This document shows, in pieces, positions 41,157 to 48,628 of a stretch of DNA of 64,000 nucleotides (its first letter is position 1; every line of letters starts with the position of its first letter). The stretch covers positions 1,664,001 to 1,728,000 of the forward strand of contig CAVUVW010000013.1 of NCBI GenBank assembly GCA_963745035.1. Reading direction: 5' to 3'. The stretch is from an uncultured delta proteobacterium. GTDB taxonomy: Bacteria > Desulfobacterota > Binatia > UBA9968. A model generated the notes under the pieces. The model saw nothing but the letters and a program-made list of their open reading frames with translations. It was not told where the DNA came from and did no database searches. The translations under genes were made by a program, and so were the position numbers.

Positions 41157-41466
41157 AAAGTCCCCTTTCTCGCACCTAAAGAAGTGCGCGCTTAAGACAT
41201 GACATGAAGAAGCCTATCAGGCGCACTGGTGCTCCGCTAGCCCCCCTTGGAACGTCATTTGCGACAATAGTGTGACGGGTAGCGCCGGGTCATGGTGATG
41301 TAAGCGCCAGGAAGCAACGGAATCGCTTTAGGCGTTCCGGAGCGGCTAGATCGCGTCTTCATCGTACGAGTGCCCCGAAACCGAAACGTCCCAGAGTTGG
41401 GTCGGTCATTGCTGAATGCGAGTCGAAGCGACGGCACGGACGCAAACACGCATAGCGTAAGGAGTT

Positions 41467-42156
41467 ATGATGGCGGAAAAGATCAACAGATTCGAAGTAC
41501 AGACACTGCTGAAGAACGGAACACAGCTCGTGGAAGTTTTGGGCCGAAAGGAATACCGCTGGGCGCACCTACCTCAGGCCATCAATATCCCGCTTTGGGA
41601 CATCGATTTTCAAAGCACCTCGGAGCTCATGAAGAATCGATCGATCGTCGTATACTGCCATGATTACCAGTGAGACTTGAGCCCGAGAGCCGCGGCGCGG
41701 CTCGAAACGCTCGGATTTGAAATGGTTTTTGACTACGTGGCGGGAAAACTCGACTGGCTCGCCAATGACTTACCGGTAGAGGGGGAATTGGCTGGGATGC
41801 CAAAACTGGGAGACCTCGCGGATCGCCAGGTTTCCACGTGTTTCCCGGAGGAAGATGCCGGTGAAGTCCTGGATAAAATGCAACAAGACGGTCGCGACCT
41901 TTGCGTTGTTGTAGATAAGGAACGTGTGGTTCTTGGAATTGTAAAAAACGAGGCAACGAAGAATTCGCAACAGTCTGTAGACCAAGTCATGGAGCCGGGG
42001 CCGACCACGTTCCGTCCTTATATCGCCGTTGAGGAGCTGGCTGATCAAGTCGCTGGAAAAAACATGGCTGCCGTTCTCGTGACGACTTCGGACGGCCGTC
42101 TGATTGGCTCGGTACGCGCAGAGGACATCCGATCACGCCAAGGAGGGCGAGAATAA
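41467..42156 (+). CDS. Rhodanese-CBS domain protein, probable selenoprotein (in-frame TGA at 41671-41673)
   Basis: ORFs 41467-41673 and 41677-42156 share a frame. HLPQAINIP..VVYCHDYQ*DLSPRAA..LGF..YVAGK.DW forms one rhodanese domain, followed by a CBS pair. AAGGAG RBS. Confidence 0.8.
41683..41714 (+). promoter_or_regulatory. Candidate bacterial SECIS hairpin
   Basis: gagccgc-ggc-gcggctc with lower stem ccga/tcgg; the G-initiated loop starts 20 nt after the TGA. Confidence 0.6.
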
Positions 42157-42180
42157 ATCGAGGCGGAGTGTCATCCGGGC

Positions 42181-43281
42181 CTATTCCAACACACCGAGTA
42201 ATTGGAATTCATAGACGCCAACCGAGCTAAAGCCGTGAGAAGAGACGACCTTCACTTTCAGATACCGCGCTTTGACCGGCGGGAACTTGAACTCTTGATA
42301 GGGGTTTTTGAAAAAGCGCAGGTTCTGCGTCTGAAACTTGCCGATCGAATCGAATTTTCCGGTCGGAGAATCATTCCCGGCCAGTAGCTCGAACTCTCTC
42401 AAATTCCAGCTCTCCGCACCTAGGATCAGAACCTTGAATGTATCGAAGCTTGCGGGCTTATCATCTTTGAATCCGTAAACCGCCCAGCTGCCGGCAACAC
42501 CGACGTCGATGTATTGCCAATTTTTCTCATCGCCGTCGATGGCGTAGGGCCAGCGATCGTTTGTGGCAGCAACGACATGGCCGCCGTTTTCTGCAGCAAG
42601 CAGATTCGTTGCCGATGATCGAGGTTGTGTTGAAGGCTCGCGCTTGGCATTGTGGCCCGCGCCGCCGAGGTCAGGCTTTGTCGGATCAGGGGCGGTACTC
42701 GTCGTCGACTGAATCGATGACTGGTTCTGGGATTGAGAATGTTGTTTTTCGAAAAAGCCGGTTTGTTGAAGCACGGCAAGCGAACCGAGCGCGCCAGCTA
42801 GGACGCCCGCCAAAATACCCCACACCGTCTTCGACCAATGGGGTGACCGCACTGCGCTAATGATCGGGATTCGTCTTGGTTGCGGGGCGCTGCCATCCAT
42901 CATGCCGGCGACCGTCCGTAATAATTCATCGAACTCACGATGCGAAGAATCACCGTGCCAATCGGAGAGATCCGCTGCTTCGATTCTCTTGAATTCGAGG
43001 GGAATTTTGACGTTATCGATCAACGCCGGCACGAGGATTCCTCGCTCCGCGCCCTCCGCTGCTTCCGTTTTCACCCAACGGGACGACACCGAGGTTTTAG
43101 ACCAGAGAACAACCACACAGCGGGCCGAGCTCAACGCATTCTCGATCGTCTCGTCGAACGACTTGCCGGGCGGAATCTCTCGATCCCACCAAACCGACCA
43201 ACCCCTCTGTGAAAATGCACTGGCGAGCAGCTCAGCTTTTTCCTTATCCGCTCGTGCATAGCTGATAAAAATTTCACTCAT
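42181..43281 (-). CDS. TIR domain - TM - discoidin (F5/8 type C-like) protein
   Basis: IFISYARAD, VWWD and SRWVKTEA motifs; TM WGILAGVLAGALGSLAVL; AIDGD...ARYLKVKV...VYEFQL. Confidence 0.85.
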   Translation of the reverse strand: MSEIFISYARADKEKAELLASAFSQRGWSVWWDREIPPGKSFDETIENALSSARCVVVLWSKTSVSSRWVKTEAAEGAERGILVPALIDNVKIPLEFKRIEAADLSDWHGDSSHREFDELLRTVAGMMDGSAPQPRRIPIISAVRSPHWSKTVWGILAGVLAGALGSLAVLQQTGFFEKQHSQSQNQSSIQSTTSTAPDPTKPDLGGAGHNAKREPSTQPRSSATNLLAAENGGHVVAATNDRWPYAIDGDEKNWQYIDVGVAGSWAVYGFKDDKPASFDTFKVLILGAESWNLREFELLAGNDSPTGKFDSIGKFQTQNLRFFKNPYQEFKFPPVKARYLKVKVVSSHGFSSVGVYEFQLLGVLE

Positions 43282-46039: not shown

Positions 46040-46330
46040 GATTCTACCTCCGAATCTTGTGCCGATTTATATCTGCAGTAGATTTAAATAAGCTTTTTTT
46101 CCAGGCCGCGCAACATCTCGCCGGAGCGGGAGAGCCGTCAACCCCTTTCCGCGTATCTCTCTGCTAACGGCTTGAACGGAGCGCAGCGGTTGAACGCCTT
46201 GAACGATTTGAATGGGCCTCGTATCTTCTTAGCGCAGCTTGACAATCTTGACGGCGGGGCGTTATCCGTAACGAAATACGCACCGTCGCTCACTCGAGCT
46301 TTATTACTTGGTTTCAGACGTGGAGGACAG

Positions 46331-47512
46331 ATGCACCTCAAGCATGGACTTATCAGCGCCGACTCTCACGCGGCATTTGACCCGGGCACCTACACCAGCC
46401 GGATGTCGGCAAGCAAGTGGGGAGATTTGATCCCGCGGGTGGTGGAAACGAAGGAAAACGGCACAGTTTACGACCGCTGGTCGATCTACGGCAAGATTTC
46501 CGACAACGACATATGCAACTGCCCGGCTCTGATGGGCGAGCCATTCCCGACGTTCCCGAAGCGATGGGGGGAAGTGCCGGCGACCGCCTATGATCCGCGG
46601 GAGCGCCTGACTGCGCTCGACCGCGACGGTATCGATGCAGAGGTGCTGTTTCCGAACCCTCCGGGCGGGACCTTTTTTGAATATGGCGATCGCGAATTCG
46701 AGCTCGACGTCGTGCGCGCCTATAACGACGCGCTGTCCGACTGGGCGCGCGCGAGCGACCGCTATCTGCCGCTCGCCATCATCGCCTATCTGAGCCAACC
46801 GGAGACCATCGCCCGCGAGATCGAGCGCGCCGCGGCGGCCGGTCATCGCGGCATCAATTGTCTGGGCGAGATGCCGTCACCGCTGCCCCATCTCACCGAT
46901 CCCTACTGGTATCCGCTCTGGGATGTTTGCCAGGCGCTCGACCTGCCCGTGCACATTCACGGCTCCGCGGGTGTGCGCGCCGGAGGTTCGGTGCGCAAAT
47001 GGAGCGGCTATACGCCGCGCCAGGCCCATTCGGCGATGACCGCCACGTCGGCGGTGACGCCGGCGCAGGTTGTGCCGCATTTGATTTTTTCGGGATTGAT
47101 GCAGCGCTTCCCGCGCCTGAAAATCGTCTTTGCTGAGGCCGGCATCGGCGGCCTCAATTACGTGCTCGCGGCCTGTGATCACGAGTGGGAATCGCGCCGG
47201 TTGTGGAGCGAAGGCCTGCAGACGCGCCCGAGCGAGACAGTGCGCCGGCAAGTATATGTGAATTTCTGGTTCGAGGCCGAAGGCATCAAGCTGCGCCACG
47301 ATATCGGCATCGATAACATCATGTGGGAATCGGACTTCCCGCACGTGGCATCGTATTACCCGCGTTCCTGGCAGGAGGTCCATCGCGTGCTCGAAGGCGT
47401 GCCGCCCGAAGATCGACGCAAGCTGCTCTACGAGAACGCGATCCGGCTGTACCGCATCGATGCGGCTGTGCCGGAGAAAACCATCTCGGGGGATGCGGCA
47501 TCGTGGAGCTGA
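46331..47512 (+). CDS. Amidohydrolase_2 family protein
   Basis: ISADSH, DGIDAEVLFP, AYND, HIHG and WESDFPH motifs; GGAGG RBS. Confidence 0.9.
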   Translation: MHLKHGLISADSHAAFDPGTYTSRMSASKWGDLIPRVVETKENGTVYDRWSIYGKISDNDICNCPALMGEPFPTFPKRWGEVPATAYDPRERLTALDRDGIDAEVLFPNPPGGTFFEYGDREFELDVVRAYNDALSDWARASDRYLPLAIIAYLSQPETIAREIERAAAAGHRGINCLGEMPSPLPHLTDPYWYPLWDVCQALDLPVHIHGSAGVRAGGSVRKWSGYTPRQAHSAMTATSAVTPAQVVPHLIFSGLMQRFPRLKIVFAEAGIGGLNYVLAACDHEWESRRLWSEGLQTRPSETVRRQVYVNFWFEAEGIKLRHDIGIDNIMWESDFPHVASYYPRSWQEVHRVLEGVPPEDRRKLLYENAIRLYRIDAAVPEKTISGDAASWS

Positions 47513-48628
47513 AGTACGGCTTCATCAGCGTCGACGACCACGTGCAGGAGCCGCCCGATCTTTGGAGCGAGCGAATGCCGCGCCGCTGGGGCGCGCGGGT
47601 GCCGCATCTCGAGCGCGCATCCGACGGAGCGGAGCGCTGGGTGGTCGACGGGAAAACTCTGCTCGGCGGTACGGCGAGCAAAGCCGGCGCTTTCATGACC
47701 GATCGTAATTGCGAGCCGAGCCGTTGGGACGAAGTTCCAGCGGCGGCCTACGTGCCTGCCGAGCGTCTGAAGGTGATGGACGCCGCCGGCGTGGATGTTT
47801 CCGTGCTCTATCCGACCGTGGCGGGATTGGCGGGAGAAGTGTTTGGCGCGATCGAGGACAACGAGCTCGAGCTTGCCTGTGTCCAGGCGTACAACGACTG
47901 GCTGATCGAGTCATTGGGCCGCAGCGAGCGAACGATTCATTCCCCAATGCATCGTCCCGATTTGGCCGGTCGACGCGACCATCAAAGAGATTCGCCGTGC
48001 GGTAAAACTCGGCCACCGCGGCGTGGTGTTTCCATCGCTGCCCATGCATCTGCGCAACGTCCCGCATGTCAGCGGACCCGAGTACGATCCGCTGTGGGCG
48101 GCGTGTGAGGACCTCGATGTGCCAGTCTGCTTCCACGCCGGCGCTTCCGCCGAGCTGCAGTATCCGCCCTCTACCGCGCTCAGCGGTCCGCTCGCCCAGG
48201 CTCTCGACGCGGTGACCCGGCCGGTTTCCAATGTGTTCGTGCTCTCGCTCTACTCGTTCTCGCGGGTGTTCCTGCGCCATCCCCGGCTGCGGATCGTGCT
48301 TGCCGAAAGCGCCTTGAGCTGGGCAATGCTGTTTATGGAATGGGCCGATCACCAGTTCGAGCACGACGGGCTGGCGCGCGAGGGCTACGATTTGAAGCCG
48401 TCGGAAATGTTTCGCCGCAACTGCTTTTTGACGTCGTGGTTCGATCCCGTCGCGCCCTTTCTTGAATACGTCGGCGCGGAGCATATTCTCTGGTCGAGCA
48501 AGCTGCCGCTGGCGACGTCGAGCTGGCCGAACACACGCGAGACGATTGAAAGTTCTTTCCGCGACGTCTCACCTCAAGCCAAGGAAAAGATACTGTGGCG
48601 CAACGCCGCGCAACTCTATCGCTTGTGA
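47503..48628 (+). CDS. Amidohydrolase_2 family protein with degenerate C-terminal motif, frameshifted near 47911
   Basis: ISVDDHVQEP and AYNDWL in one frame; YDPLWAACE, CFHAG, WSSKLP and NAAQLY in the next. Confidence 0.82.

Follow-up and report, generated by a model that had tools for sequence, protein, structure and literature searches.

A rhodanese-CBS fusion gene with an in-frame TGA that very probably encodes selenocysteine in a Binatia genome

The window analysed here is a stretch of 64,000 nucleotides from the genome of an uncultured delta proteobacterium of soil (Desulfobacterota; Binatia; UBA9968), on whose forward strand a single TGA (41671-41673) separates two open reading frames (ORFs). 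The 5' ORF (41467..41673) comprises 68 codons and is terminated by this TGA, and the 3' ORF (41677..42156) lies in the identical frame. When the TGA is read as selenocysteine (Sec, U), the product has 229 residues, carries the loop ...VVYCHDYQ-U-DLSPRAAARLE... and matches in length the full-length homologues of 220-245 aa. This arrangement had been described in an earlier sequence-only reading of the DNA, and both the ORFs and their translation agree with it. The spacing of the AAGGAG motif, which lies 5 nt ahead of a second ATG at 41470, makes that codon the likelier start, and the product would then be 228 aa long. By inspection of the sequence, no comparable motif was found before TTG 41677 or ATG 41722, the positions at which gene callers start the 3' piece. 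A scan for promoters and terminators was uninformative: the only promoter-like site lies on the wrong strand, and the terminator-like sites, four in number where 1.4 were expected, are weak. The features of the locus are as follows.

41459..41464, + strand: Shine-Dalgarno-like motif AAGGAG, read from the sequence, 2 nt ahead of ATG 41467 and 5 nt ahead of ATG 41470
41467..42156, + strand: complete coding sequence on read-through, 229 codons and the stop TAA
41497..41763, + strand: rhodanese domain, residues 11-99, extending across the TGA (Pfam PF00581, 36.7 bits, cut-off 22.2)
41656..41658, + strand: codon of Cys64, the first Cys of the C-x4-U loop, with Y-C at the end of a strand (Cys in 102 of 107 aligned rows, query included; Gly in 5)
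41671..41673, + strand: UGA/TGA, very probable selenocysteine codon, residue 69 (TGA in 15 loci; Cys in 92 of the 106 aligned homologues from the database)
41677..41718, + strand: SECIS-like two-tier hairpin (folds; constraints of the bacterial SECIS, or bSECIS, model; lowest synonymous variation over codons 70-80)
41677-41682 with 41709-41714, + strand: lower stem of the hairpin, from folding
41687-41693 / 41697-41703, + strand: upper stem of the hairpin, 5' arm GAGCCGC and 3' arm GCGGCTC, from folding
41694-41696, + strand: apical loop GGC, from folding
41803..42135, + strand: CBS pair, about residues 113-223, left edge approximate (Pfam PF00571, 47.5 bits, cut-off 24)

The read-through product combines two domains. 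The Pfam rhodanese match crosses codon 69, and neither half alone is a whole rhodanese, as had been pointed out from the sequence. The first domain is assigned to PF00581 by a score above the gathering cut-off together with a Cys in which the central strand ends, and the second to PF00571 by two matched stretches above the cut-off, the best at residues 171-223, together with a fold match to CBS pairs. An AlphaFold2 model computed from 64 sequences covered the whole two-domain chain with a mean pLDDT of 95.5 and a pTM of 0.88. In this model, the active-site loop spans residues 64-70 and is flanked by strand 60-63 and helix 71-81; the rhodanese elements located 3' of the TGA are helix 71-81, strand 87-90 and helix 93-99, and the secondary structure of the CBS part extends over residues 114-228. 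The assignment of C64-H-D-Y-Q-U69-D as the seven-residue active-site loop of the N-terminal rhodanese domain is well supported, as is, at the level of a confident model, the predicted packing of the CBS pair against the rhodanese domain. By analogy with its family, the CBS pair may bind a nucleotide, and the adenylate sensing suggested in the earlier reading is possible.

The best match in both sequence and fold was BH2092 from Bacillus halodurans (PDB 3nhv, 3o3w), a stand-alone C-x4-C rhodanese from structural genomics. The sequence match had an E-value of 7.2e-9, and the fold match (3nhv) an E-value of 1.4e-9, a target-normalised TM of 0.72, 29% identity and an rmsd of 1.5-1.6 over 107 columns. 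The Y-C64 of the window's protein aligns with the Y-C that holds the first Cys of the BH2092 loop YCWGPAC, and we take C64 to be the catalytic Cys position of the rhodanese family. The spacing of the two loops is identical, with Cys in BH2092 where the window's protein has Sec. Unlike the window's protein, BH2092 carries neither a CBS pair nor Sec, and its function is unknown too. The fold of residues about 113-228 was matched by the CBS modules of MJ0922, AcuB, the cytosolic domain of MgtE and the plant proteins CBSX1/2 (E 1e-8 to 1e-7), at identities to the window's CBS part of only 14-22%.

A Sec codon presupposes a Sec machinery, and the genome (an assembly of 7.43 Mb in 28 contigs, reported to be 92.6% complete and 5.8% contaminated) was found to contain selA, selB, selC and selD, all above curated cut-offs. 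Genes selA (592 bits), selB (347 bits) and selD (385 bits) lie side by side on contig C17 at 315-320 kb (C17:315264-319742). The tRNA-Sec (76.7 bits) is encoded at C17:371273-371363, about 50 kb from this cluster, and was assigned the anticodon tca by ARAGORN. In addition, the KAAG-U-AAK motif of selD itself contains a single in-frame TGA, and one TGA was found in fdhA, the gene for the formate dehydrogenase alpha subunit.

Downstream of the TGA, the upper stem of the hairpin (41687-41703) consists of 7 perfect pairs and folds at -11.6 kcal/mol, and 2 of 200 shuffled sequences fold as well. The perfect gagccgc/gcggctc stem and its G-initiated loop had been noticed from the sequence and were both recovered by folding; the distance of 20 nt from the TGA, which had been given for the stem, holds for the start of the loop but not for the stem, which begins 13 nt after the TGA. 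The bSECIS model, as stated in the legend of Fig. 2 of a 2026 review, describes a loop of 3-9 nt, a stem of 4-16 bp, a G in the first two loop positions, a spacing of 16-37 nt from the UGA and a minimum free energy of at most -7.5 kcal/mol (PMC13188914). With its 3-nt loop GGC, 7-bp stem, 20-nt spacing and the energy given above, the hairpin falls within all four constraints of this model, and its earlier description as SECIS-like is borne out.

Comparison among relatives adds to this picture. Over 11 distinct Sec-form sequences, 96.6% of the stem cells were paired and two stem changes were seen, both one-sided (G-U to A-U and G-C to G-U); no compensatory pairs were found among these sequences, for which the shuffle control was uninformative. 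A scan of 41400-42200 against Rfam at E up to 10 gave no matches. Synonymous variation was compared over 10 Sec loci, L027 being excluded. Where two loci share a residue, the fraction of pairs with different codons was 0.148 within codons 70-80 and 0.506 across the 155 informative columns; a value as low as the former was found in 2 of 145 codon windows of this size, both overlapping the hairpin stretch, and did not occur among 10,000 random column sets. This minimum of synonymous variation points to a constraint at the RNA level exactly where a SECIS is expected. At the same time, the hairpin results in part from the conservation of the S-P-R-A-A-x-R-L-E codons. In selD, in fdhA and in four other rhodanese genes of this genome that contain a TGA, inspection by eye also showed GC-rich hairpins, 13-20 nt after the TGA, whose short loops contain G.

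The residue at codon 69 was examined in a protein database, where 714 matches were obtained at E <= 0.001; columns were counted over 107 sequences of at least 200 aa, query included, drawn from the query and the best 120 of the 714 matches. In the 106 full-length homologues so defined, column 69 holds Cys in 92, Trp in 11, Asp in 2 and Arg in 1, so that Cys, Trp or U stands there in 104 of the 107 rows once the query is included. With Cys in 102 of 107 rows at column 64, both positions of the loop appear to be important. At the level of DNA, TGA was found at codon 69 in 15 loci, comprising 7 genomes of the genus (G000, G002, G004, G005, G011, G442 and G444) and 8 metagenome contigs, with proteins 41-76% identical to that of the window. 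The copy in G005, an unpublished genome, is N-terminally truncated, and without it the counts become 6 genomes and 14 loci. Homologues of a Sec-encoding gene had been expected to show Cys or TGA at this codon, and these counts agree with that expectation.

The gene was present in 8 of the 31 genomes of the genus searched, and 7 of these 8 copies have the TGA; in the eighth, that of G003, codon 69 is TGT and Cys64 is replaced by Ser. A metagenome scan returned 16 loci, equally divided between TGA (L042-L049) and TGC (L050-L057) forms. The TGA loci L042-L049 are 57-76% identical, and L043-L047 are near-identical to one another. A scan of a genome collection gave one further locus, which belongs to an Acidobacteria MAG and has the Cys form. 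An even draw across the phylum of 400 other genomes gave no matches with the query used at E <= 1e-25, so that in this comparison the gene was seen in the genus alone. Cys codons (TGT or TGC) were found at position 69 in 10 loci from three lineages. The hairpin is present in two of these lineages (L023 and L051-L057) and absent only from L050/L058. In the TGC metagenome contigs L051-L057, the same two-tier hairpin as in the Sec forms folds at -26.3 kcal/mol and would be the relic of a SECIS or else a hairpin that was there beforehand. The copy in G003 (L023, G003:C29:257897-258568) is the only Cys-form orthologue of the genus; it has kept the full hairpin, shares 75% identity with the TGA form L024 across the aligned part, and looks like a recent Sec/Cys switch. 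In a separate observation, a 320-nt soil contig (X9 record 11) matches the window only over 41668-41707 (40 nt), with 2 other letters, and its differing flanks read like another family member. Since the match is confined to this interval, the stretch of TGA and hairpin appears to be the best conserved DNA between these relatives.

The surroundings of the gene vary between copies. A gene for a TPP-dependent enzyme lies upstream of the congeners' copies and of L043-L047, and the window's copy is flanked by a LysM gene and by a TIR-domain gene on the other strand; the comparison of these settings revealed neither a conserved operon nor a functional hint. The convergent TIR neighbour (42181-43281, - strand) has an N-terminal TIR domain (TIR_2 91 bits, ThsB_TIR 27 bits), and the roughly 240 residues that follow it gave no Pfam match. 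Further downstream, the ORF at 48023..48628 (+ strand) covers only positions 116-289 of the Amidohydro_2 profile and overlaps, in another frame, a family-less ORF at 47323..48108 (+ strand). Being partial and overlapped, it may belong to a frameshifted gene; a complete Amidohydro_2 gene is found at 46172..47512, just before 47323..48628.

Selection was estimated on read-through codon alignments by the Nei-Gojobori method. Between L022 and L042, dN/dS amounted to 0.112/0.344 upstream of the TGA and 0.133/0.635 downstream; between L022 and L043, to 0.194/1.39 and 0.342/1.99; and between L024 and L025, to 0.191/0.99 and 0.208/1.46. The resulting ratios of 0.14-0.33 upstream and 0.14-0.21 downstream are those of conserved coding sequence, and purifying selection acts on both sides of the TGA. 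The maintenance of the 5' piece by selection disfavours both a pseudogene and a free-standing 3' gene, neither of which would keep the 5' piece in this way.

Altogether, these results make it very likely that 41467-42156 is one Sec-encoding gene whose product is a selenoprotein of 228 or 229 aa. In this well-supported interpretation, UGA-69 would be decoded as Sec by the genome's own SelA, SelB, SelD and tRNA-Sec, and decoding would be directed by the stem-loop that begins 13 nt after the UGA, within the codons for D-L-S-P-R-A-A-A-R-L-E.

Public annotation mostly depicts the locus otherwise, in keeping with the earlier prediction that gene callers would split it. The members of database clusters include 67-aa pieces named 'rhodanese-related sulfurtransferase' and 143/144-aa pieces named 'Mg/Co/Ni transporter MgtE', in one case both on the same contig, alongside a small number of 228/229-aa calls. 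These pieces are exactly those expected if the TGA were a true stop, with a 67/68-aa N-terminal rhodanese fragment followed by a separate CBS-pair protein starting at TTG 41677 or ATG 41722, and C-terminal pieces account for 14 of the best 120 of the 714 database matches. The rhodanese fold, however, needs residues from either side of the TGA, as is seen both in the Pfam match over residues 11-99 and in the modelled helices and strand of residues 71-99, and the 92 homologues with Cys at codon 69 run through this position uninterrupted. Both internal starts are without a ribosome-binding motif, purifying selection acts on codons 1-68 as strongly as on the remainder, and UGA is decoded as Sec elsewhere in the genome, in selD and fdhA. 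A true stop is accordingly considered very unlikely.

The TGA could also be a sequencing error or a nonsense substitution that has turned a Cys-type rhodanese-CBS gene into a pseudogene. The reported completeness and contamination of the assembly leave room for such a lesion, and other genes of the window may be broken, the partial Amidohydro_2 ORF at 48023-48628 being an example. Against this stands the recurrence of the same TGA in all 15 loci across proteins of only 41-76% identity, always at the codon that encodes Cys in the homologues. The TGA was also covered, with no differing letter listed, by soil contigs from two further studies (X9 records 8-10 and X11 record 4; X9 and X11 are soil runs of different studies, and the records are assembled contigs, not raw reads), so that the check for an assembly error, made on independent contigs, found the TGA in place. 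Furthermore, the upstream dN/dS ratios lie well apart from the values near 1 that relaxed selection would produce. Pseudogene and error are together judged extremely unlikely. Two other runs were searched at the locus: no contig of run X2 was placed there, possibly a false negative, and the contigs of RNA run X15 cover only 41380-41535 and 42024-42176, the two ends of the gene, with the TGA outside.

Least probable of all is the decoding of the TGA to a residue other than Sec, for instance Trp, by a variant code or near-cognate suppression, which could call on the Trp at column 69 of 11 database homologues but is opposed by the prevalence of Cys rather than Trp in the homologues, by the complete Sec machinery, by the only one of the 11 Trp homologues that was compared with DNA (P0002, whose W is a TGA in the matching contig L042 and was called under another code), and by the ordinary use of TGA as a stop in this window, where it ends 28 of the 62 stop-to-stop frames of at least 250 aa and, taken as sense, would give frames with up to 19 internal TGAs.

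The probable Sec-encoding gene of the window is accompanied by further candidates. Rhodanese-domain matches number 16 in the genome, and five of them, the window's gene included, contain an in-frame TGA. Since Sec would occupy three different loop positions in these five ORFs, the loop looks a useful natural series on selenium versus sulfur. The other four are L078 (C13:903298-903528), a secreted-looking protein of 144 aa with FT-U-GTG; L079 (C15:305478-305741), of 157 aa with LY-U-ACP; L080 (C10:50888-51175), in which LYCS-U is fused to a DedA-like membrane domain; and L082 (C27:203024-203305), in which FCA-U is fused to a K+/H+ antiporter-like domain. Against the family model NF041203 they scored 30.9, 60.1, 83.4 and 81.5 bits, respectively, and none reached its cut-off of 115 bits. 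The U-x-C arrangement of L079 is absent among the motifs in the available part of the 2026 catalogue (PMC13188914). Within the genus, another C-x4-U rhodanese with the loop YCAGPT-TGA-PLG (U-x-x-G) was observed in at least 7 genomes, in open frames of about 360-420 aa (L028-L035, in G023, G007, G020, G014, G022, G015, G009 and G012). The scan did not show this loop in L029 (G007), and a search of the window's own genome with the query used did not find this rhodanese.

Rhodanese-type selenoproteins have been listed since 2004-2007 (PMC1088965, PMC1976440). The 2026 review gives five rhodanese-like forms with the motifs UxxS, UxxG, CxU (NF041203), again UxxG, and UxxxxU for TsoB (PMC13188914). 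The statement that Sec-containing rhodaneses exist, made at the outset, is in keeping with these entries, one of which, TsoB with its U-x4-U, has Sec at this very loop position. Like the window's protein, all five forms are described there as having a PF00581 domain in which Sec lies within the active-site loop or next to it, and as predicted from Cys/Sec pairing and a SECIS, without biochemistry. The UxxS motif of the first form is formally fitted by the U-D-L-S of the window's protein, a comparison of motif strings only, and none of the motifs listed is given as C-x4-U, unlike that of the window's protein. The term 'CBS' does not occur in the available parts of the 2026 (PMC13188914) and 2022 (PMC9312934) selenoprotein catalogues. 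A literature search, whose scope lay outside subscription papers and the figures and supplements of the 2004-2005 catalogues, found no work that combines a rhodanese, a CBS domain and selenocysteine. The fusion of a CBS pair to a C-x4-U rhodanese, absent from the two catalogues as searched, thus very probably represents one more form within a known kind of selenoprotein.

Two of the catalogued forms can be compared with the window's protein in greater detail. TsoB (NF045694) is a rhodanese/DsbD fusion whose rhodanese part is distantly similar to the window's protein (E 1.6e-7 over residues 20-112) and, by its motif, has Sec at both loop positions that correspond to C64 and U69. The window's protein has one Sec, no DsbD part and a CBS pair instead, and it scored 29.8 bits against NF045694, through the rhodanese part only, where the cut-off is 805. 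The LYCAU type (NF041203, the third form, CxU) has a loop of the same length, from Cys to the S-x-R of the helix at C+8, as read from L080 and L082, but places Sec at C+2 where the window's protein has it at C+5. With its C-x4-U motif, the window's protein scored 23.1 bits against NF041203, compared with the cut-off of 115.

As to the chemistry, a tentative scheme may be put forward, which we regard as possible rather than probable. Cys64 and Sec69 would form a redox-active selenenylsulfide pair on the loop, with Sec69 acting as the nucleophile, by which sulfane sulfur or a comparable chalcogen substrate would be accepted or reduced, and with Cys64 as its resolving partner. The CBS pair would tune this activity on binding an adenosyl ligand. 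The orthologue in G003, with Ser64 and Cys69, indicates that a pair of two redox residues is not obligatory. Judged from the sequences of this copy and of the five homologues with Gly64, position 69 is apparently able to stand alone.

The spread of the family was surveyed by a profile search of 1.84 billion representatives, which returned 453 proteins at E <= 1e-30. Among the best 150 of these 453, 64 start with x-S-x-R-A-A, directly after codon 69, and 41 are full-length with C64 and C69; S64/C69 and G64/C69 occur in 2 each, and W69 and S69 in 1 each. The remaining 39 lie outside these patterns, and by eye at least 5 of them are further fragments starting after codon 69. A state could be assigned to 111 of the best 150, which are representatives of 50%-identity clusters: 71 were labelled 'Sec-like', an inferred label that denotes a piece starting right after codon 69 or a W69, 39 Cys and 1 other. 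By this count, the Sec form may be commoner than the Cys form. A FastTree analysis of the C-terminal part of the 111 sequences gave 21 state changes on a weakly supported tree, against a mean of 33 (minimum 24) for shuffled states. With a tree of this support and labels of this kind, the result suggests that the Cys/Sec state has switched repeatedly. In a tree of nearer homologues, the verified TGA forms fall into one cluster, with the Cys form L023 inside it and the hairpin-bearing Cys form L051 beside it. One idea is that S-P-R-A-A-x-R-L-E, the invariant peptide with which the helix starts, when written in GC-rich codons, is already SECIS-competent at the right distance, so that a single change from TGC to TGA would be enough.

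The most far-reaching interpretation would see in the rhodanese-CBS proteins a large, uncatalogued selenoprotein family of soil bacteria, with many Cys/Sec switches, a SECIS-ready hairpin and the activity of an adenosyl-ligand-gated selenenylsulfide enzyme; taken as a whole, this is rather unlikely. If true, the enzyme would act on sulfane sulfur or selenium. The hairpin, lying as it does in codons for conserved residues, offers a testable case of SECIS origin. Nothing known is overturned by these findings. The present annotation of the family is systematically mistaken, and its recognition would repair many annotations in soil metagenomes and add one form to the catalogue of prokaryotic selenoproteins.
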